Assembly: GCF_054482595.1 (NCBI RefSeq)
Contig: NZ_CM137008.1
Direction: 5' to 3' (one strand)
DNA: 64,000 bases
The notes beneath the pieces were generated by a model. It had not been told where the DNA came from. It did not search any database and was given only the letters and a program-made list of their open reading frames with translations. Every line of letters begins with the position of its first letter. Positions within the stretch are counted from its first letter, which is position 1. Positions 6,892-48,508 of the stretch are shown one piece after another. The translations under genes were made by a program, and so were the position numbers.

Positions 6892-7947
6892 ATGTTTAAT
6901 CATATATTTACCCAGGTCAAACGTTCAGAAAATAAAAAAATGGCGGAAATCGCCCAATTCCTGCATGAAAATGATTTGAGCGTTGACACCACTGTCGAAG
7001 TATTTATTACCGTAACCCGCGATGAAAAGCTTATCGCGTGCGGCGGAATTGCCGGAAATATTATTAAATGCGTTGCTATCAGTGAATCCGTTCGCGGTGA
7101 AGGACTGGCGCTGACATTAGCCACCGAACTGATAAACCTCGCCTATGAGCGGCACAGCACGCATCTGTTTATTTATACCAAAACCGAATACGAGGCGCTG
7201 TTCCGCCAGTGCGGTTTTTCCACGCTGACCAGCGTCCCCGGCGTGATGGTGCTGATGGAAAACAGCGCCACGCGACTGAAACGCTATGCCGAATCGCTGA
7301 AAAAATTTCGTCATCCAGGGAACAAGATTGGCTGCATTGTGATGAACGCCAATCCCTTTACGAATGGTCACCGTTATCTGATTCAACAGGCTGCGGCACA
7401 GTGCGACTGGTTGCATCTGTTTTTAGTCAAAGAAGATTCTTCACGCTTCCCCTATGAAGACCGGCTGGATCTGGTGTTAAAAGGCACCGCCGATATTCCA
7501 CGCCTGACCGTGCATCGCGGCTCCGAATACATCATCTCCCGCGCTACGTTCCCTTGCTACTTCATTAAAGAACAGAGCGTCATTAACCATTGTTACACCG
7601 AAATTGATCTGAAGATTTTCCGTCAGTACCTCGCTCCCGCGCTGGGTGTAACTCACCGCTTTGTCGGTACTGAACCCTTTTGTCGCGTTACCGCCCAGTA
7701 CAACCAGGATATGCGCTACTGGCTGGAAACGCCGACTATCTCCGCACCGCCCATCGAACTGGTTGAAATTGAGCGGCTGTGTTACCAGGAGATGCCGATA
7801 TCCGCTTCCCGGGTACGCCAACTGCTGGCGAAAAACGATCTCACGGCTATCGCGCCGCTGGTCCCTGCAGTCACGCTGCATTATTTGCAGAACCTGCTTG
7901 AGCACTCCCGCCAGGACGCGGCAGCTCGTCAAAAGACCCCCGCATGA
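6892..7947 (+). CDS. citC: [citrate (pro-3S)-lyase] ligase
   Basis: Sequence recognised as CitC (MFNHIFTQVKRSENKKMAEIAQFL..., NANPFTNGHRYL motif); the track ORF starting at 6784 is an in-frame extension overlapping the MFS gene. Confidence 0.9.
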   Translation: MFNHIFTQVKRSENKKMAEIAQFLHENDLSVDTTVEVFITVTRDEKLIACGGIAGNIIKCVAISESVRGEGLALTLATELINLAYERHSTHLFIYTKTEYEALFRQCGFSTLTSVPGVMVLMENSATRLKRYAESLKKFRHPGNKIGCIVMNANPFTNGHRYLIQQAAAQCDWLHLFLVKEDSSRFPYEDRLDLVLKGTADIPRLTVHRGSEYIISRATFPCYFIKEQSVINHCYTEIDLKIFRQYLAPALGVTHRFVGTEPFCRVTAQYNQDMRYWLETPTISAPPIELVEIERLCYQEMPISASRVRQLLAKNDLTAIAPLVPAVTLHYLQNLLEHSRQDAAARQKTPA

Positions 7948-35392: not shown

Positions 35393-35668
35393 GTGGCTTC
35401 TGTTTCTATCAGCTGTCCCTCCTGTTCAGCTACTGACGGGGTGGTGCGTAACGGCAAAAGCACCGCCGGACATCAGCGCTATCTCTGCTCTCACTGCCGT
35501 AAAACATGGCAACTGCAGTTCACTTACACCGCTTCTCAACCCGGTACGCACCAGAAAATCATTGATATGGCCATGAATGGCGTTGGATGCCGGGCAACAG
35601 CCCGCATTATGGGCGTTGGCCTCAACACGATTTTACGTCACTTAAAAAACTCAGGCCGCAGTCGGTAA
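35393..35668 (+). CDS. insA: IS1 InsA
   Basis: 91 aa [43 protein letters not shown]... Confidence 0.95.
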
Positions 35669-36090
35669 CCTCGCGCATACAACCGGGCAGTGACGTCATC
35701 GTCTGCGCGGAAATGGACGAACAGTGGGGCTATGTCGGGGCTAAATCGCGCCAGCGCTGGCTGTTTTACGCGTATGACAGGCTCCGGAAGACGGTTGTTG
35801 CGCACGTATTCGGTGAACGCACTATGGCGACGCTGGGGCGTCTTATGAGGCTGCTGTCACCCTTTGACGTGGTGATATGGATGACGGATGGCTGGCCGCT
35901 GTATGAATCCCGCCTGAAGGGAAAGCTGCACGTAATCAGCAAGCGATATACGCAGCGAATTGAGCGGCATAACCTGAATCTGAGGCAGCACCTGGCACGG
36001 CTGGGACGGAAGTCGCTGTCGTTCTCAAAATCGGTGGAGCTGCATGACAAAGTCATCGGGCATTATCTGAACATAAAACACTATCAATAA
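35587..36090 (+). CDS. insB: IS1 InsB frame (expressed as InsAB' by frameshifting)
   Basis: 167 aa track ORF containing the InsB sequence. Confidence 0.9.
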
Positions 36091-36319
36091 GTTGGAGTCA
36101 TTACCGAATCAACCTATGGTGCGGTATGTTTAAGTATGCCGGTATTCAATATGTATAACAGAGTTAACTATGCAATCTCACTTTCTGGCGATCCGGTAAT
36201 TTATTCAGGAAATAAGATAGACAGCTATCTGGAGTTGCTCCGGAAATGCACAGGGCAAATATCATATGGGCTGGGATACAGAAACGAAAATGAACATTTA
36301 CGAAAAGGAAACTGAGGTA

Positions 36320-39309: not shown

Positions 39310-40659
39310 ATGCCACTAATTATCGTTGTGGCAGGGATTGCTTTACTCCTGCTTTTAACCATAAAAATTAAGCTTAATACGTTTGTTTCGTTAATTATTG
39401 TCTCGATTGCTGTCGCCATCGCCAGTGGTATGGATTTGAGTAAAGTCGTCACCTCAGTCGAATCCGGACTTGGCGGTACGCTGGGCCATATTGGTTTGAT
39501 ATTTGGGTTCGGTGTTATGCTCGGTCGCTTGCTGGCCGATGCGGGGGGGGCGCAGCGAATAGCGCTGACCATGCTGAATTATTTCGGGAAAAATAAACTT
39601 GACTGGGCAGTGGTCTGTTCGGCGTTTATTGTCGGTATCGCACTTTTTTTCGAAGTCGGTTTAATTCTTCTGGTACCTATTTTATTCGCTATTGCCCGTG
39701 AAGCAAAAATATCACCGATGTTTATGTGTGTGCCGATGCTTTCCGGTTTGCTGGTCGCACACGGTTTTTTGCCGCCGCACCCCGGCCCGACAGTAATCGC
39801 CAGAGAATATGGTGCTGATGTAGGATTGGTACTGATATACGGTATCATTGTCGGCATTCCAACCTTTATTCTTTGCGGCCCGGTATTGAATAAATTCTGC
39901 CAGCGCATTATTCCGGAAGCCTTTAAAAAAGAGGGGAATATAGCCTCTCTCGGCGCGACCCGCCGGTTCAGCGAAAGCGAAATGCCTGGCTTTGGGATCA
40001 GTTTTCTCACGGCAATGCTGCCGGTGATCCTGATGGCGGTTGTCACCATCATCCAGATGACTCATGCCAAAAGTGCCGCGGATTCAGGCTTATTCTACAA
40101 CGTGCTACTGTTCTTAGGTAATTCGACGATCGCCATGCTGATTTCACTGCTGTTCGCGATCTATACCATGGGCCTGGGGCGCGGGAAAACAATCCCTGAC
40201 CTGATGGATTCTTGCGGAAAAGCTATCGCGGGTATTGCCGGTCTGCTGCTGATTATCGGTGGTGGTGGTGCATTCAAGCAAGTTCTCATCGACTCTGGCG
40301 TTGGTCAGTATATTTCCACCCTGGTTTCGGGTATGGATATTAACCCGATCCTGATGGCCTGGGGCGTGGCCGCATTCCTGCGTATTTGTCTGGGTTCAGC
40401 CACCGTCGCGGCGATCTCTACCGCCGGTCTGGTCATCCCATTGTTGGCAGTACATCCCAATACCAACCTGGCCTTGATTACGCTGGCTACCGGTGCCGGA
40501 TCCTGTATTTGTTCTCACGTTAACGATGCCAGTTTCTGGATGATTAAAGACTTTTTTGGCCTGACCACCAAAGAAACGCTGTTATCCTGGACGCTGATGT
40601 CCACACTCTTATCCATCAGTGGGCTGATTTTTATTCTGCTCGCCAGCTTAGTTTTATAA
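39310..40659 (+). CDS. yjhF: GntP-family permease
   Basis: 449 aa polytopic membrane protein, recognised as YjhF. Confidence 0.85.
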
Positions 40660-40809
40660 TCGGGTTCTTGCCAGTGAGCCAACCTGTTGTTCACTGTCCC
40701 CCATAATTTAGTGAGTGACGGCAACCGTCTGCACGGTGACGAATCGCTGGCGATCAAAAAGGGGCGATATTGAACCGTCGATTATGCTTGTTGAGTGTAC
40801 TCTCAGTAA

Positions 40810-40844
40810 TACTGTAAAGCCGGAGCATGTCTCCGGCTTTACAG
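40810..40844. repeat. perfect 15 bp-stem inverted repeat (actgtaaagccggag / ctccggctttacagt, 5 nt loop)
   Basis: Seen directly in the yjhF-yjhU intergenic region; no T-run follows on either strand. Coordinates approximate. Confidence 0.4.
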
Positions 40845-41005
40845 TATGGGGGAACAGCGGGAGATCGCTCAAATGGTATGCTGGTTTATTTCATGTAAAA
40901 GAATAAAATATCTGTATAAAATCATGCCACTGGCAATCTGCATCAACTCTCCGGGTAAACAGGGTTAAGATGAGCATTTCCCCGGTTTAATACAGGTATA
41001 CAAAA

Positions 41006-41992
41006 GTGGATAGAGATCAAACAAACAGCAGCCTGTTCAATGATGATCCCGTACTTCATGCAACATGGCTGTACTATCAGGAAGGCAAAAGCCAGACTGA
41101 AGTTGCAGCTATCATGGGGGTGTCCCGCGTCACGGTTGTCAAATACCTGCAAACAGCCCGGGAAAATGGACTGGTTCATATCAACCTGGATGTGAATGTC
41201 TTTGGCTCTATCGACGCTGCTTTGCAAATTCGCGATAAATTCAATCTCCTGAGAGTGATCATCGTGCCGGATGGCGAACATGCCGGAAAACGTGATGATA
41301 CAAAGCTGATGCGGACTCGCCTTTCACGTGCCGGTGGCATGTATCTGAATCAGGTGATTGAGAATGGTGATGTGCTGGGGGTTGCCTGGGGAAGAACAAT
41401 CCATCAGATGAGCAAAACCATGACGCCGAAGTCATGTAAAAATGTCACCGTTATACAGATGCTCGGTTCCATGCCATCTCAGCCAGACCTGACGATCATT
41501 GAATCCTCATCGCAAATCGCCTACAAGCTTTCAGGCCGTGTCGCTTCGCTGCACGTGCCCGCCGTGGTATCAAGCGCCAGACTGGCCATGGAGTTACAGG
41601 CAGAGCCTATTATTCGATCGAATTTTGACGTTCTGACTCGCTGTACGAAAGCCTTTTTTGTCGTGGGTAACACGCTTGATGAAAATCCCCTGATTCGGGT
41701 GGGCGTGCTGAATAAGAAGGAAATGCAGACGTATCGAGATTTAGGCGCAGTAGGTGTCATTTGTGGCCGCTTCTATGACAAGGAAGGGATGCCCGTCGTG
41801 GCTGATGTTGACCAGCGTATTCTGGGAATCAGTCTGGCTCAGTTAAGGCAGATTGAACGGAAGATCTTTCTTGCTGGTGGCGAAAGAGGCTATGACGCAA
41901 CGTTGGGTGCCTTGCTGGGAGGATATGTCACTGACCTGATTGTTGATGAAGGAACGGCAGAGTTTTTGCTGGCGTGTGAATTACCACACTAA
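41006..41992 (+). CDS. yjhU: SorC/DeoR-type sugar-binding transcriptional regulator
   Basis: 328 aa, N-terminal HTH (SQTEVAAIMGVSRVTVVKYL) and SorC-like sugar-binding domain; recognised as YjhU. Confidence 0.8.
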   Translation: MDRDQTNSSLFNDDPVLHATWLYYQEGKSQTEVAAIMGVSRVTVVKYLQTARENGLVHINLDVNVFGSIDAALQIRDKFNLLRVIIVPDGEHAGKRDDTKLMRTRLSRAGGMYLNQVIENGDVLGVAWGRTIHQMSKTMTPKSCKNVTVIQMLGSMPSQPDLTIIESSSQIAYKLSGRVASLHVPAVVSSARLAMELQAEPIIRSNFDVLTRCTKAFFVVGNTLDENPLIRVGVLNKKEMQTYRDLGAVGVICGRFYDKEGMPVVADVDQRILGISLAQLRQIERKIFLAGGERGYDATLGALLGGYVTDLIVDEGTAEFLLACELPH

Positions 41993-42032
41993 AAGAATGA
42001 ACAACTGCCCCATGTGGATATGGGGCAGGATT

Positions 42033-43037
42033 TTATTGATTAGCGGCGATAATAAGAACAATACCCACAATGTATGAAATAAACATAGTCAGCAGCAGTT
42101 TATTGGTTCCGGCTGGCGCACTGGCAAATTCTCTCCAGATGAAGACTCCCCAGATCACGGCAATCATTGTGGCACCCTGTCCCAGACCGTAGGAAATGGC
42201 ATAACCCGCCTGACCAGACGCAATCAAACTGAATGCCAGACCGACACACCAAATCATACCGCCCAGCCAGCCGCAAACATGATCCCGTAAACTCCCGGAA
42301 AAATACATTTTCCTGTAGACCGGTTCTCCTGAAATAGGCTTTTTCATGACCAGCGTGTTAAGGACAAAGTTCGACAAAAACAGCCCCACTGCAAACAGAA
42401 CAAGTGCTGAGTACGGCGTCATCAGACCGCTGGCAGGCTGGCTGAAATTGTCAGACATGGAGTCCGCCAGGAAGCGGAAAAACCATCCCATGATGATACC
42501 CGCAAGAATGGCAGTGATGAGGCCTTTGTTACGGCGAGATTTATCCGCCTCCTGCGTGACACGGCCATAGGCTATCGCGGTAAAAATAATGGCGATCACA
42601 ACGCAGGCGACACCGAGGAACAGAATGAGCGGATCGCCCTGCGGATTGCCGATATAGGTGGTGATCACACCCAGAGCCAGTGCCAGCCCCACCCCCACAG
42701 GAAAAGCTACCGCCATACCGGCAAGATTAATAGAAGCCACCAGAAGAATATTGGAAATATTGAAGATAATCCCTGCCAGTATTGCCGACATCAGACTACT
42801 GCTGCTCGCCTGCTGAATATCAGGTATAAAGCTGCGACCGGCTTCGCCCATAGAACCCAGAGTGAAGGCAAATAACAAAGAACACAGCAATAATCCAATT
42901 GAATAATCCCAATAGAATAGAGGGAACTCCCATTTTTTATTACTGACAAGTTTAGTTGTATTCGCCCATGAACCCCAGCAAATCATGGTAATAAAACACA
43001 TTATTATGGCGACAGCATACGATTCCACGATAAACAT
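42033..43037 (-). CDS. DMT-superfamily sugar transporter (glucose/ribose porter-like)
   Basis: 334 aa, about 10 TM segments, resembles GlcU/RbsU-type sugar uptake proteins; family call tentative. Confidence 0.55.
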   Translation of the reverse strand: MFIVESYAVAIIMCFITMICWGSWANTTKLVSNKKWEFPLFYWDYSIGLLLCSLLFAFTLGSMGEAGRSFIPDIQQASSSSLMSAILAGIIFNISNILLVASINLAGMAVAFPVGVGLALALGVITTYIGNPQGDPLILFLGVACVVIAIIFTAIAYGRVTQEADKSRRNKGLITAILAGIIMGWFFRFLADSMSDNFSQPASGLMTPYSALVLFAVGLFLSNFVLNTLVMKKPISGEPVYRKMYFSGSLRDHVCGWLGGMIWCVGLAFSLIASGQAGYAISYGLGQGATMIAVIWGVFIWREFASAPAGTNKLLLTMFISYIVGIVLIIAANQ

Positions 43038-43140
43038 AAATAACTCCTTGTGGTAGTTACAATCAATCGTTGTGGACAGAGGGCATAACAGCCATTCCTC
43101 GAATGGCTGTTATATGTTATTAATTAAAATAAAGCTGTAA

Positions 43141-43782
43141 TTACGCTTTCAAACCATACGTTTTGAATTTTTCAAGAACGATGGTCATTTCGGCTTCAGA
43201 CAGAACGGGAACATCGTGATGTAATCCGCCACATTTGATGTATAAATCAGCCAGCGTCTCAGTTTCACCCGCCAGCCACAACGTCTTTTCCAGCGTGACG
43301 TCCATGGCCAGCATACCGTGGTGCTGCATCAGTAAGGACTTACTTTCTCTGATTCCTTGAGATACACTGTCGGCCAGTTCAGGGCTGCCAAAGGTATAAT
43401 AGGGAATACAGGGAATATGATCCGTCCCCGATACCGCCACCATATAATGAATAGCCGGAATTGAATGATTATGTATTGCCACCGCCGTGGAATTCACCGC
43501 ATGCGTATGTATGACAGCATTCAATTCTGGTCTGGCTTTATAACACGCCAGATGAAATAGCCATTCACTTGATGGTATTTTACCCGCTTCAGGTATTCCC
43601 TTATCGTCTACAAAGACAATCATGTCCGGCGTCATCTTTGAATAAGCGATCCCACTCGGTGTAATCAACATGCCACCGGTATATCTGGCACTCACATTAC
43701 CTGATGTTCCTTGATTCAGACCTGACGCATTCATTTCCCGACAAATGGAAATGATATTTTCTGCTAACTTAATCCTTTCCAT
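43141..43782 (-). CDS. class II aldolase/adducin family protein (MtnB / L-fuculose-phosphate aldolase-like)
   Basis: 213 aa with conserved His-rich metal site (HTHAVNSTAVA, LMQHHGMLAMD). Confidence 0.8.
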   Translation of the reverse strand: MERIKLAENIISICREMNASGLNQGTSGNVSARYTGGMLITPSGIAYSKMTPDMIVFVDDKGIPEAGKIPSSEWLFHLACYKARPELNAVIHTHAVNSTAVAIHNHSIPAIHYMVAVSGTDHIPCIPYYTFGSPELADSVSQGIRESKSLLMQHHGMLAMDVTLEKTLWLAGETETLADLYIKCGGLHHDVPVLSEAEMTIVLEKFKTYGLKA

Positions 43783-43812
43783 TACTGCTCCTTAACAGAA
43801 GTGATCGTCGTT

Positions 43813-44928
43813 TTAATGCAGCTCGTCCTGGAGTGCTTTACTCTTCAGGTCAGCAAACATATCCGCCAGAGCTGACTTACTGGCAGCACAGACTCCCCGT
43901 TCAGTAATGAGGCCGGTAATGTATCGGGCAGGCGTGACGTCGAAAGCGTAGTTCCCACAACGGGTTCCTTCAGGGGCGGTATTGACCCAGCTCAATTCTC
44001 CCTGAGTATTTATCCCATAGACATGGGACTGCTCTTTTCCGTCACGTTGCTCAATCGGAATGGTTTTTCCGTCCTCGATAGTCCAGTCAATAGTGGGAGA
44101 AGGTAACGCGACGTAGAAGGGAACATGGTTATCATGGGCCGCCAGCGCCTTAAGATAGGTACCAATTTTATTACAGACATCCCCTCTGGCCGTGGTTCGA
44201 TCGGTCCCCACTATACAGAGATCAACGTCACCGTGTTGCATCAGGTGGCCACCCGCATTGTCGGCAATCAGGGTGTGAGGAATACCGTGTGAACCCAGTT
44301 CAAATGCCGTGAGTCCACCCTGATTACGTGGCCGCGTTTCATCCACCCAGACGTGAACAGGGATTCCGTTTTCATGCGCTTTATAGATGGGAGAAAGCGC
44401 GGTTCCCCAGTCTACAGTCGCCAGCCAGCCTGCGTTACAATGTGTCAGGATATTGACCACACTCCCGGCCGATTTTTTCTGGGCTATTTCGCGGATGACT
44501 TCTGCACCATGTAATCCAATTTGTTCACACAACGCGACATCTTCCTCGGCAATTTCTGCCGCCAGCGCCCAGGCCACATCCTTGCGCTCTGATACACAGA
44601 GATCCTTCAGTGTGGCTATCATCCTGTCGAGAGCCCATTTGAGGTTAATTGCAGTTGGTCGGGTTTTGATAAGAAGGTCATAGTAACGCTGCAGACCTAC
44701 GTCACTGGCATTGTGGTTCATTCCCAGTGCGATACCATATGCCGCAACGACACCAATAAGCGGGGCGCCACGAACCCACATCTCCTGAATAGCCGCAGCG
44801 GCCATTTCCGCAGAGGTAAGCGCCACCACTTCAAACTTAAAAGGCAGCTTAGTCTGATCGATGATCTCTACCGCTTTTCCATCCCCGGAAACCCAGACCG
44901 TTCGGTAGTGTTTACCTTTAATATTCAT
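43813..44928 (-). CDS. S-methyl-5-thioribose-1-phosphate isomerase family (MtnA/eIF-2B-like)
   Basis: 371 aa; MtnA-like sequence pattern throughout. Confidence 0.85.
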
Positions 44929-44937
44929 AATGACCTC

Positions 44938-46197
44938 TTACTTAACCTTCGCAGACTGGATGACGGAGTCCATATTTTTAAACTGGCGGGCATTGACAAT
45001 AAGATCGCGCGCCATGGTCAATGCACGTCGTTCACATTCTGCGCGAAGCTCTGTATTTTCAATCTGTTTCAGCTCGGCAACGCCAGCAAAACCAATGATC
45101 CGGCGATTCATTTCCATGCCGGCATTCACCAGGGAATCTTCAAGCAGCGTGGCAAAAAACTGATCCTGTGCGTCCTCAAGAGCGGCCCTGTTCTGTTGAT
45201 ACATTTCTGTCGGCCACGCGTCACCCTGTGTTTTGTTGTCCCAGAGCTGGCGGAACTCCCGGGTGAAAACTGACCAGGTGTGGACAATCTGCTGAAGTAG
45301 CCATTCCTGATAGTCAGCGCGACGTTGCTCATTTGCATCCCACCCAGGGCGTGAGAAGAACGCCAGCAGGAGGTTGCCAATATAGTTGCCGATATCAAAC
45401 GCCATTGGTCCCATGAAACCGAACTCCGGATCAATCACTTTGGTATCCGTGTCGGTCACCATGATTGAGCCTGAATGAAGGTCACCATGTAACAATGCCT
45501 GCGCTTCTGTCATAAATTTGTACTTATAACGCATGGCAACCTGGAGCATCTCTACATCAGCCCAGGCCTTATGGACGGCATCGTCCAGCTCAGGAGAAGT
45601 CCAGTTATTCCGTTCCGCGTTGTAATAGGGCTCTGTGAAGATCAGATCTTCCGTAATTTTGCACAGCTCATGATTTAACGCGAACTCAGCAGTAAGCGCT
45701 TTTTTCTGTTCTGCTGACATGCCAATGTCAGACGTATTAAAGAGAGTCTGTGCTAAAAATCTGCCGATATCTTCAGCTAGCTTAGGGAATTTTTTACCGT
45801 TAATCAGTCCCTTACGCAGAATTACGTGAGGCGTCAAATACTCCATGGCAAACAGTGCCATTTCCGGGTCATAAAAATAGACCTGGGGAATCAGTGTGTG
45901 ACCCGCGTACTTGGCTTCCTGACATAAGACGTTGTACTCAAAGCCCGCACGGCTCAGAGATAAAGGCCATCCTTCGCCCCCTGCACGAAGCCAGGGCAGA
46001 GCTTGTTTTACAATGATGGTTTTATGTGTCCCCTTAACGATAAACACCATGTTCAGGTTTCCGTCCCCCACTTCTGAAACTTTCCACTCTTCTGGTAACC
46101 CTCCCGGTTCGCATGAAGGGGTCAGTCTGGACGAGAGATAACCAGGCAGCGTGTCACATGTCAGCGGCTTGTAACCTGATGGAATTGAATCCGTCAT
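44938..46197 (-). CDS. S-methyl-5-thioribose kinase family (MtnK-like)
   Basis: 419 aa; aminoglycoside-phosphotransferase-like kinase with MtnK-type motifs (HGDLHSGSIMV, DPEFGFMGP). Confidence 0.85.
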   Translation of the reverse strand: MTDSIPSGYKPLTCDTLPGYLSSRLTPSCEPGGLPEEWKVSEVGDGNLNMVFIVKGTHKTIIVKQALPWLRAGGEGWPLSLSRAGFEYNVLCQEAKYAGHTLIPQVYFYDPEMALFAMEYLTPHVILRKGLINGKKFPKLAEDIGRFLAQTLFNTSDIGMSAEQKKALTAEFALNHELCKITEDLIFTEPYYNAERNNWTSPELDDAVHKAWADVEMLQVAMRYKYKFMTEAQALLHGDLHSGSIMVTDTDTKVIDPEFGFMGPMAFDIGNYIGNLLLAFFSRPGWDANEQRRADYQEWLLQQIVHTWSVFTREFRQLWDNKTQGDAWPTEMYQQNRAALEDAQDQFFATLLEDSLVNAGMEMNRRIIGFAGVAELKQIENTELRAECERRALTMARDLIVNARQFKNMDSVIQSAKVK

Positions 46198-46711
46198 AAC
46201 AGTTCTCCTTGTCTACACAGAATGATAACTGACTTATCATATGGCAACTATACTTTATCATGTGTAAAGTAATTTGTGATGCATGTAGATTTTTTGAACT
46301 GGAGAAAATTAAAAATAATGTTGTATGGAGTCATGATCTTTACAGGAATTAGTAGGGTGCATTCCTGTTATTTATATAAAATTCATTGTATTACATAAAA
46401 ATGACGGTGCTGCGCGGGGAATTGTCTCGGGCAATCTTAGACGAAAGGAAGTATTGAAGTGACAGAATAATCTACATTTTTTATACATGTGTATTTTTCT
46501 GTTGTCTTTTGTTTTTAGCGTATGGTGTTTTTATGCCGATGTCTAATAGACAGATAGATTCGAGGGCCAACAGCCCCATTATCATGATGGAGCAACAGAG
46601 GTGAGTCTAACGTTTCCGTACTTCTTATCGATCGGCACTAACAATCCTTTGTGATAACGGTATTCCCACACAGAGAAACCCACGTACCTGAATAAAAAAA
46701 AGATTACTGGT

Positions 46712-47130
46712 GTGGAAATGGGATTAACAGATTATGCCATCAAATCGGATGGTAATGAGGTCAATAATCCTCGTCATCTCATTAACGTCAACTGTAATCT
46801 GCGACGCAAATTAGCCAGCATGATGAATAACAAACACAATCTGGCAAGAGCGTTAGGTGATGCTGATTGGCACGGCTTTATCAACAAACTGGAGTACAAG
46901 GCAGCCGAAAAAGGCGTTCATCTGGTAAAAATCGACCAGTAGTTTGTCTGTTCGAAAAGCTGCTATTGTTGTGGTTACAAAATGTCGCTTCAAAAACGGA
47001 TCTGGCGATGCCCTGAATGCGGTGTTGAACATGACCGGGATATAAATGCGGCAATCAACATAAAACTTAAAGACATACAGGAATTAAAGGCGGCGGGCCC
47101 CGTCGTCTCTGTCTATGGAGGAGCTGCGTA
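46712..47130 (+). pseudogene. IS200/IS605-family TnpB (OrfB) C-terminal fragments
   Basis: ORF 46712..46942 then a frame encoding MSLQKRIWRCPECGVEHDRDINAAINIK (TnpB zinc-finger end); no N-terminal part. Confidence 0.6.
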
Positions 47131-47395
47131 AACCCGTCGTACAGACGGTTGCAGCCTGAAAAGTGGGAAGGCCTTGCCCGATTGGGCGGGGAGTAGTCAC
47201 CCTTGGAGTCATTTTTATCCGGTGTATTAATATGCTCCTAATAGTTAATCTGGTTATAATATTTTTTTTTTGATTATGATCACGAAAATATCTCGGTTTT
47301 TATTTGCAAAACTTGAAACGTGAATCCAAAAAAGATAAATATTTGTCCGCAGTGACTTCTTTTCTGTTGAAAAGTTCAATCTAAAGGGCAAAAAA

Positions 47396-48508
47396 ATGAA
47401 AAAAATTACAGTGGCACTTTCTGTGGTTGCGGCATCTGTTCTGATGGCAATGTCTGCACAAGCGGCAGAAATCTATAACAAAGACGGTAACAAACTGGAT
47501 CTGTACGGCAAAGTTAATGCAGAGCATTACTTCTCTTCTTCAGCTAGTGATGACGGGGATAAAACTTATGCTCGTATGGGTTTCAAAGGTGAAACTCAGA
47601 TTAATGACCAGTTAACCGGTTTTGGTCAGTGGGAGTACGAATTTAAAGGTAACCGTACTGAAACTGAAGGTTCTGATAAAGATAAAACTCGTCTTGCGTT
47701 TGCAGGGCTTCGCTTTGGCGATTATGGTTCGCTCGACTATGGTCGCAACTACGGTGTAGCTTATGATGTTGGCGCTTGGACTGACGTGCTGCCGGAGTTT
47801 GGTGGAGATACCTGGACTCAGACTGATGTATTTATGACCCAGCGTGCTACTGGCGTAGCGACCTATCGTAACAATGATTTCTTCGGCTTGGTTGATGGTC
47901 TGAACTTTGCTTTGCAGTATCAAGGTAAAAATGATAGTGCTGCAAAAGTGAATAACTGGAAAGGCCGTGACGAAGTTGAATCTAATGGTGATGGCTTTGG
48001 TCTGTCAGCTACTTACGATTATGAGGGATTTGGCGTTGCTGCAACCTATGCAAAATCTGACCGTACTGATGGGCAGGTATCCTATGCTAAAGACAGCCCT
48101 CTGAATGCCTCTGGTAAAACTGCTGAAGTATGGGCTACGGGCCTGAAATATGATGCAAACAACATTTACCTGGCTGCAACTTATTCTGAAACTCAGAATA
48201 TGACAGTCTTCGGTGATGACCATATCGCAAACAAAGCGAAAAACTTTGAAGCTGTTGCTCAATACCAGTTTGATTTCGGCTTGCGTCCGTCCATCGCTTA
48301 CCTACACTCTCGCGGTGAAAATATTGGTGCGTTCGGTAACCAGGATCTAGTTGAATACATCGACGTAGGTGCGACTTATTACTTCAACAAAAATATGTCC
48401 GCTTTCGTTGACTACAAGATCAACCTGATTGATGAAAGTGAATTTACCAAAGCATCTGAGGTTGCAACCGACAACATCGTTGCTGTTGGTATGACCTACC
48501 AATTCTAA
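47396..48508 (+). CDS. outer-membrane general porin (OmpC/OmpF/PhoE family)
   Basis: 370 aa; signal peptide [39 protein letters not shown] start and C-terminal ...VGMTYQF. Confidence 0.9.

Follow-up and report, generated by a model that had tools for sequence, protein, structure and literature searches.

A perfect 17-bp palindrome ahead of mtnR (yjhU) in Escherichia coli: a possible transcript-end hairpin insulating the regulator gene

The spacer between yjhF and yjhU contains a long perfect palindrome, and the question is what kind of element this is and whether it acts as DNA or as RNA. YjhU was renamed MtnR in 2025 (PMC12632272); neither the mtnR promoter nor the palindrome is described in that work. 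In the window (the whole stretch of DNA that was analysed, 64 kb), the spacer holds a perfect inverted repeat with 17-nt arms that spans 39 bases (40809-40847; Table 1). The 15 bp stem with a catgt loop reported in a preliminary description of this DNA is real (40811-40845) and lies nested in the longer repeat. The naming of the flanking genes as yjhF (GntP permease) and yjhU (PF04198, SorC-type) is correct as well; RefSeq gives both the same names on identical DNA. The hairpin is built from a GC core (GCCGGAG/CTCCGGC) with AAA/TTT flanks, followed outwards by an ACTGT/ACAGT extension, and in the right arm the core runs into a weak T-tract and tail, TTTACAGTAT (40838-40847).

The window has seven perfect hairpins with stems of 10 bp or more, the longest being the yjhF-yjhU palindrome. 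The longest perfect stems in block-shuffled copies of the window are 8-11 bp and never exceed 11 bp, so a stem of 17 bp is far beyond chance. Further perfect hairpins without T-runs are located at 14816-14846, 17854-17884 and 59592-59615 (stems of 14, 12 and 10 bp respectively). As RNA, the palindrome alone is predicted to fold with approximately -27 to -28 kcal/mol whichever strand is transcribed (-27.4 kcal/mol for the full 17-bp stem), and the GC core with its CATGT loop folds with -11.7 kcal/mol. In a 101-nt context the predicted energies are -45.9 kcal/mol (z = -6.7) for the plus strand and -36.3 kcal/mol (z = -6.6) for the minus strand. The element thus has the GC-rich stem-loop that is characteristic of intrinsic terminators (stem of approximately 5-14 bp, loop of 3-8 nt).

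The palindrome is real, being neither an assembly artefact nor a dispersed repeat. It is present in 1,602 of 5,426 complete E. coli genomes, in each of them at one locus that is always chromosomal and free of annotated features; the two BLAST hits obtained per genome are this one locus, matched once on each strand as expected for a palindrome. The preliminary description had left room for an assembly artefact, which the identical palindrome in some 1,600 independent complete genomes disposes of, and had asked for a comparison with the K-12 spacer: the same palindrome is found in MG1655 at 4,520,485-4,520,519. It is invariant across these genomes, which are closely related. A full-text search of the literature for the core sequence found no paper.

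The stop codon of yjhF lies 150 nt upstream of the hairpin, which accordingly follows a gene end in the sense orientation, as intrinsic terminators do. On the other side, the mtnR promoter region is generally at least as similar between E. coli and Citrobacter as the neighbouring coding sequence (approximately 94% identity). An RpoD-holoenzyme site listed for the yjhF-yjhU spacer as TTAAGA-15-TTTAAT (Shimada et al., 2014; PMC3946193) maps to 40965-40991, downstream of the hairpin. The DHAP-shunt operon (mtnK-mtnA-ald2-transporter; by Pfam an APH-type kinase, IF-2B, class II aldolase and permease) runs from 46197 down to 42033, convergent with mtnR; in K-12, IS1F and fec genes are found in its place. 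In the strain analysed, the 5' two-thirds of yjhI, which encodes the IclR-type regulator of the xylonate operon, are replaced by IS1-like sequence (approximately 35480-36108) and approximately 225 bp of its 3' end are left before yjhH, so that the xylonate genes upstream of the hairpin have lost their own regulator and native promoter.

A scan of a genome collection, together with exact-protein look-ups, finds the mtnR module behind three different upstream neighbours (Table 1). All three contexts include the hairpin, ahead of the mtnR promoter, together with the mtnR upstream region; in C. amalonaticus the hairpin is located approximately 115 nt after an 88-aa gene. Judged from these comparisons, the hairpin travels with mtnR rather than with yjhF in the E. 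coli, Citrobacter and L032 contexts. It is missing upstream of mtnR in Providencia (whose protein is 89% identical), in the uncultured relatives L051 and L052, and in Vibrio, Photobacterium and Morganella. Providencia (L033) has a non-homologous 9-bp hairpin at approximately 7613-7640, with two G.U pairs and valid on the plus strand only; it starts approximately 10 nt past the stop codon of the upstream TPP-enzyme gene and, as in the E. coli hairpin, TTTACA follows.

Table 1. Features of the yjhF-mtnR spacer, its genomic contexts and candidate MtnR operators. Positions refer to the window.
Feature	Position	Strand	Sequence, context or source
yjhF, GntP-family permease, last gene of the xylonate cluster (yjhHGF)	39310..40659	+	Gene calls/RefSeq
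Palindrome, left arm	40809..40825	.	ATACTGTAAAGCCGGAG; includes AAA (40816-40818) and GC-core half GCCGGAG (40819-40825)
Palindrome, loop	40826..40830	.	CATGT; CATGC in both Citrobacter alleles
Palindrome, right arm	40831..40847	.	CTCCGGCTTTACAGTAT; GC-core half CTCCGGC (40831-40837)
yjhU/mtnR promoter region	40870..41005	+	90-100% identical between E. coli and two Citrobacter lineages
yjhU/mtnR, PF04198 sugar-binding, SorC-type regulator	41006..41992	+	Pfam/RefSeq
Candidate MtnR operator, E. coli mtnK P1	46251-46269	-	ACTTTACACATGATAAAGT
Candidate MtnR operator, Providencia (L033)			ATACTTTGCATATGTAAAGTAT
Candidate MtnR operator upstream of mtnR, L052 (uncultured relative)			GGTTTGCACCTGTAAAGT
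Candidate MtnR operator upstream of mtnR, L051 (uncultured relative)			GATTTACAGCTGTAGAGT
Candidate MtnR operators, Morganella			Two TACATATGTA palindromes
Candidate site, Vibrio and Photobacterium			CCTTTGT-N13-ACAAAAGT; divergent mtnR/operon spacer
Upstream neighbour yjhF			E. coli and C. freundii-type Citrobacter; co-oriented with mtnR
Upstream neighbour, AlpA/YfjJ-type island genes			L032, Klebsiella-labelled contig; co-oriented with mtnR
Upstream neighbour, T6SS Hcp/Tlde1 cassette			C. amalonaticus; co-oriented with mtnR

Three alleles of the hairpin are found, and all of them keep a stem. The E. coli allele, CTG-TAAAGCCGGAG CATGT CTCCGGCTTTA-CAG with an AT/AT extension, forms 17 perfect pairs. 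That of C. amalonaticus (CTGATAAAGTCGGAG CATGC CTCCGGCTTTATCAG) forms 15 pairs, one of them U.G on the plus strand, and has one extra base pair. The C. freundii-type allele (AAAGCCGGAG CATGC CTCCGGCTTT, then TTAGCAT) was seen in On2M and in ten further contigs (L041-L050) encoding the same protein; its 10-bp stem has TTTTT after the GC core, and beyond the ten pairs there is a bulge and then four more pairs, one of them G.U. The two alleles other than that of E. coli have predicted fold energies of -18.4 and -23.2 kcal/mol. The arms are 9/9 in C. amalonaticus (CTGATAAAG/CTTTATCAG), 9/8 with a bulge in Citrobacter On2M and 8/8 and perfect in E. coli, a series that reads as a deletion in one arm that would have been followed by the matching deletion in the other. 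As for substitutions in stem pairs, C-G is changed to U.G in C. amalonaticus, and in On2M C-G is changed to U.G when read on the minus strand; both stem-altering substitutions leave a G.U pair on the plus strand.

Between E. coli and C. amalonaticus the surrounding stretch (40757-40906) has 66-84% identity, compared with approximately 94% for coding sequence, and the flanks of the hairpin drift at about the neutral rate. The comparison is suggestive of a structure kept through matched changes in both arms inside a drifting stretch, the covariation evidence being thin with three alleles only. The same stem-keeping pattern could also come from hairpin-templated mutation or mutation bias without selection. 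The best-conserved part of the hairpin is the GC core and not the AT-rich arms.

The lack of a T-run on either side had led the preliminary description to set an intrinsic terminator aside. Outside the full stem that lack is confirmed; inside it, AAA precedes the GC core and TTTACAGTAT follows it directly, and a GC core with AAA/TTT flanks is the build of a weak two-way intrinsic terminator. The dismissal was premature, given the A3/T3-flanked core, the T5 allele of Citrobacter and the position of the hairpin. In the E. coli allele, GGGGGAAC follows the full stem and the tail after the GC core has a score of 2.57; the U-tract of approximately 7-8 nt directly 3' of the stem that marks intrinsic terminators is absent. 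The d'Aubenton-Carafa discriminant (our own implementation) gives -10.7 on the plus and -5.7 on the minus strand for E. coli, -17 for C. amalonaticus and +11.8 for the C. freundii-type, T5-bearing allele, the only one with a positive score. A simple consensus terminator scan is negative for all three alleles, the T5 allele included; the same scan flags the mtnR/transporter hairpin at 42005-42028 in both directions. On an unrelated metagenomic contig the same core, AAAGCCGGAG-N5-CTCCGGCTTT, begins 22 nt after a stop codon; a metagenome scan for the Citrobacter-type arm returned one unrelated terminator and nothing else.

The hairpin at 42005-42028 (CTGCCCCAT...ATGGGGCAG) separates the convergent ends of mtnR and the transporter gene and is terminator-like in both directions. 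On the minus strand its tail (TTGTTCATT) is a weak one, and transcripts might read through antisense to mtnR.

Published maps of transcript ends were consulted for the K-12 locus. The Term-seq supplements of Adams et al. (2021; PMC7815308) contain no 3' end at 4,520,4xx-4,520,5xx on either strand; yjhF and the xylonate operon were probably silent in the media used, so this absence neither supports nor refutes the terminator model. The same data contain a 3' end inside yjhU, at MG1655 4,520,003 (minus strand, 321 nt in), that is scored as not Rho-dependent. The SMRT-Cappable-seq tables have no entry for yjhF or yjhU.

In E. coli, Rho-dependent transcripts are known to have their 3' ends set and protected by stable stem-loops lacking a U-tract, and terminator types interconvert by the U content that follows an otherwise identical stem-loop [Dar & Sorek, 2018 (PMC6061677)]. 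The palindrome agrees with the protective class in being a stable stem-loop without a U-rich tail. The rut-like excess of C over G downstream is not seen on the plus strand, where the first 50 nt contain 7 C vs 17 G; over 150 nt, C/G is 0.75 on the plus strand and 1.14 on the minus strand. By analogy, the pair of E. coli and Citrobacter alleles fits the picture of interconversion between U-rich and U-poor terminators. A processing site, one of the possibilities raised in the preliminary description, is compatible with this evidence in so far as it implies a role at the RNA level.

A second perfect palindrome without a T-run (43085-43113; 13-bp arms, loop of 3) is located in the DHAP-shunt operon between ald2 and the transporter gene, and is likely to be an intercistronic mRNA stem-loop. 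The stem-loop is kept in Citrobacter and in Providencia; in the latter a C-G pair is replaced by U-A, a compensatory change, and a further pair is G.U when read on the operon-sense (minus) strand. This compensatory change suggests that hairpins of this type in the module behave as RNA structures.

With the stem structure, the single-copy conservation, the position, the three stem-keeping alleles and the linkage to mtnR observed, the reading that we favour, at a probability of about one half, is that the hairpin is a weak, strand-symmetric terminator and a stem-loop protecting 3' ends, by which mtnR is insulated from upstream transcription. The palindrome would act in the RNA, forming transcript ends where the xylonate cluster (yjhHGF) and the DHAP-shunt module adjoin. 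Transcription of either strand would produce a very stable stem-loop, in which the extra ACTGT/ACAGT pairing would let the stem zip through the poor U-tract; the stem, once formed, would block 3'-to-5' exonucleases. Upstream transcription would end, or be trimmed, approximately 120 bp before the mtnR promoter, and the level of the MtnR repressor would then be set by mtnR's own promoter. We infer termination or stabilization of RNA by the hairpin, and with it the strand, the efficiency and any contribution of Rho. No other terminator-like site was found by the scan between the yjhF stop codon and mtnR, and the mtnR promoter is downstream, so the hairpin sits where a barrier to read-through would be expected.

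If the insulating role is correct, the level of MtnR, the repressor of 5'-deoxynucleoside/DHAP-shunt catabolism in extraintestinal pathogenic E. coli, would be independent of the xylonate operon, a small, useful detail for work on mtnR regulation or for promoter cloning. One stem-loop would exist in a U-rich (Citrobacter) and a U-poor (E. coli) form, which would match the proposed switching between intrinsic and Rho-assisted termination. The hairpin is most likely of the ordinary transcript-end kind and not a new type of element, and it opens no new question.

The stem-keeping changes could also belong to a relic without present function, either a former terminator or a chance quasi-palindrome perfected by intra-strand template switching and not by selection. 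In E. coli, mutation by quasipalindrome correction is well established. The stem is perfect over 17 bp in E. coli and imperfect in Citrobacter, and the difference is a matched one-base deletion per arm, as template switching yields; the near-neutral evolution of the surrounding stretch and the degenerate U-tract of the E. coli allele point the same way. However, three alleles and no fewer than three upstream contexts retain the GC core and its place before the mtnR promoter, and the palindrome is invariant in approximately 1,600 (closely related) E. coli genomes. We regard a relic as fairly unlikely.

The preliminary description had also suggested a binding site for the downstream SorC-type regulator. 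The recognition sequence of MtnR is stated as unknown in PMC12632272, where a 5-N9-5 semi-palindrome is proposed over the P1 -10 element of mtnK. Comparison of promoters across genera gives a candidate MtnR operator, ACTTTACA-NN-TGTAAAGT (Table 1), and its E. coli mtnK instance is taken to be this semi-palindrome. In relatives, candidate operators of the mtnK P1 type are located at approximately 13280-13300 (L033) and 12600-12650 (L036). The arms of the palindrome hold exact CTTTACA/TGTAAAG, the half-site 7-mer of the candidate mtnK operator, and the Citrobacter arms hold CTTTATCA, the variant that makes up the second half-site at E. coli mtnK. CTTTACA occurs nine times in the window, four of them in DHAP-shunt regulatory DNA, and in shuffled sequence the mtnR upstream region contains one or more copies with P = 0.044. 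The arms might accordingly be everted MtnR half-sites that form an auxiliary operator for a multimeric SorC-type regulator, serving autoregulation or acting as a roadblock.

Of this suggestion the shared CTTTACA stands, but the arrangement does not: the half-sites are everted (TGTAAAG-N17-CTTTACA around the GC core), whereas those of the candidate operators read CTTTACA-N2-TGTAAAG. Neither arm has an adjacent partner half-site, and ACTTTACANNTGTAAAGT is unmatched in the spacer at up to three mismatches. Conservation is best in the GC core and not in the arms, and the right arm of the C. freundii-type allele is degraded (CTTTTTAG). Outside E. coli and Citrobacter the palindrome is not co-conserved with the regulator, as the Providencia, L051/L052, Vibrio, Photobacterium and Morganella loci demonstrate, and no YjhU peaks were obtained by ChIP-exo in K-12, a strain with the palindrome, under the conditions used (bioRxiv 10.1101/343913). 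The motif match is moreover post hoc, a one-mismatch 8-mer being expected by chance in approximately 20-30% of such regions. An MtnR site in the palindrome is therefore rather improbable.

Within the mtnR promoter region, at 40883-40902, there is an operator-like GGTTTATTTCATGTAAAAG that resembles the palindromes upstream of mtnR in L051 and L052; its presence hints at autoregulation.

A role at the DNA level, as a recombination or breakage hotspot or as an end-marker of a mobile DHAP-shunt/mtnR module in the leuX island, is still harder to credit. Clear homology between the contexts does begin a short way upstream of the hairpin (L032, from 40772; C. amalonaticus, from 40757 or further upstream), and in E. 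coli 2452 (L054, NZ_CP031833.1, 3494-3510) a rearrangement junction falls exactly at the 3' base of the hairpin (40846/40847). Beyond this junction, strain 2452 carries an unrelated GTPase/YfjI-type island segment of a kind often found elsewhere in E. coli. The junction is unique among the 5,426 genomes; a single exact junction in one strain is possibly a coincidence, at approximately 1% per event. There is, however, no fixed left boundary, as other junctions lie 36 to >70 bp upstream and degenerate similarity extends to approximately 40668. The far end of the module has no matching terminal repeat beyond chance level, the hairpin is not accompanied by a recombinase or transposase, and each genome has a single copy. 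A search for terminal inverted repeats of a mobile module (40600-47600) gave chance-level pairs only, and this candidate was rejected.

The hairpin could also serve several purposes at once, as a terminator core between everted MtnR half-sites, with the repressor bridging to 40883-40902 for insulation and mtnR autoregulation, and in addition as a recombination-prone left edge of the mobile DHAP-shunt module. Such a combination would couple insulation from the xylonate operon to the autoregulation of mtnR, and we give it a similarly low likelihood. Finally, the small repeat element of the preliminary description, here taken as a dispersed palindromic repeat of REP/BIME-like or MITE-like type, has the palindromic shape and the intergenic position in its favour and is refuted within the collections searched: the palindrome is a single copy in the window (up to three mismatches allowed), has one locus per genome in the 1,602 E. 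coli genomes and no match in the phage collection, occurs in three records of the plasmid collection that all represent the same locus and no independent copy, matches no family among the Rfam 15 covariance models (the hairpin's top hit, a microRNA model matched by chance, has 16.2 bits vs a gathering score of 71.8), and has outer flanks that form no significant larger inverted repeat or structure (z = -0.35), so that the repeat reading has virtually no probability left.

Several further candidates at the locus were rejected. The flanks at 40772-40808 and 40848-40893 pair with each other on the plus strand in minimum-energy and consensus folds; a larger structured RNA was nevertheless discarded, as exchanging the central hairpin for a neutral cap gives the above z of -0.35 against shuffles. 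A 63-aa ORF (40715-40906), called as a 67-aa gene in L032, is not kept in frame: C. amalonaticus has a 13-nt insertion in it and L032 a 2-nt change of a G-run. Two ORFs of 40 aa and 31 aa, starting at 40846 and 40873, lose the start codon or gain an early stop in Citrobacter. A minus-strand small RNA that would run from a promoter-like sequence at 40936-40907 and end at the hairpin was also set aside, since shuffled sequence has as many such sites and conservation is poor between the site and the hairpin.

Known systems offer several points of comparison for the palindrome. With the candidate MtnR operator at mtnK P1 (PMC12632272) it shares CTTTACA/TGTAAAG, and its Citrobacter alleles share CTTTATCA, but its half-sites are everted and 17 bp apart whereas those of the operator face each other at 2-3 bp. 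Like the U-less protective 3' stem-loops (PMC6061677), it is stable, located in a 3' UTR, without a U-rich tail and of terminator-like energy; unlike them it has an upstream A-tract, which is absent from that class, and its plus strand is G-rich and not C-rich downstream. The resemblance to bidirectional intrinsic terminators lies in the 7-bp GC core, the 5-nt loop, the symmetric AAA/TTT and the location 150 nt past a stop codon, as well as in the U5 tract of the Citrobacter allele. In contrast to intrinsic terminators, the E. coli hairpin has only UUU and then ACAGUAU, with seven more perfect pairs past the A/U flanks; it falls below the classical discriminant and fails the consensus scan, and its neighbouring genes are co-directional and not convergent. 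A further parallel is the left end of IS200, where a palindrome upstream of the promoter of the element is reported (Beuzon and Casadesus) to act as a terminator against transcription entering from outside. No transposase is found at the present hairpin, the module is a metabolic operon with its regulator, and the shielding role is putative here; like the IS200 palindrome, however, it is perfect, stands just before the promoter of a gene, borders a module that moves horizontally and would shield against transcription from either direction.
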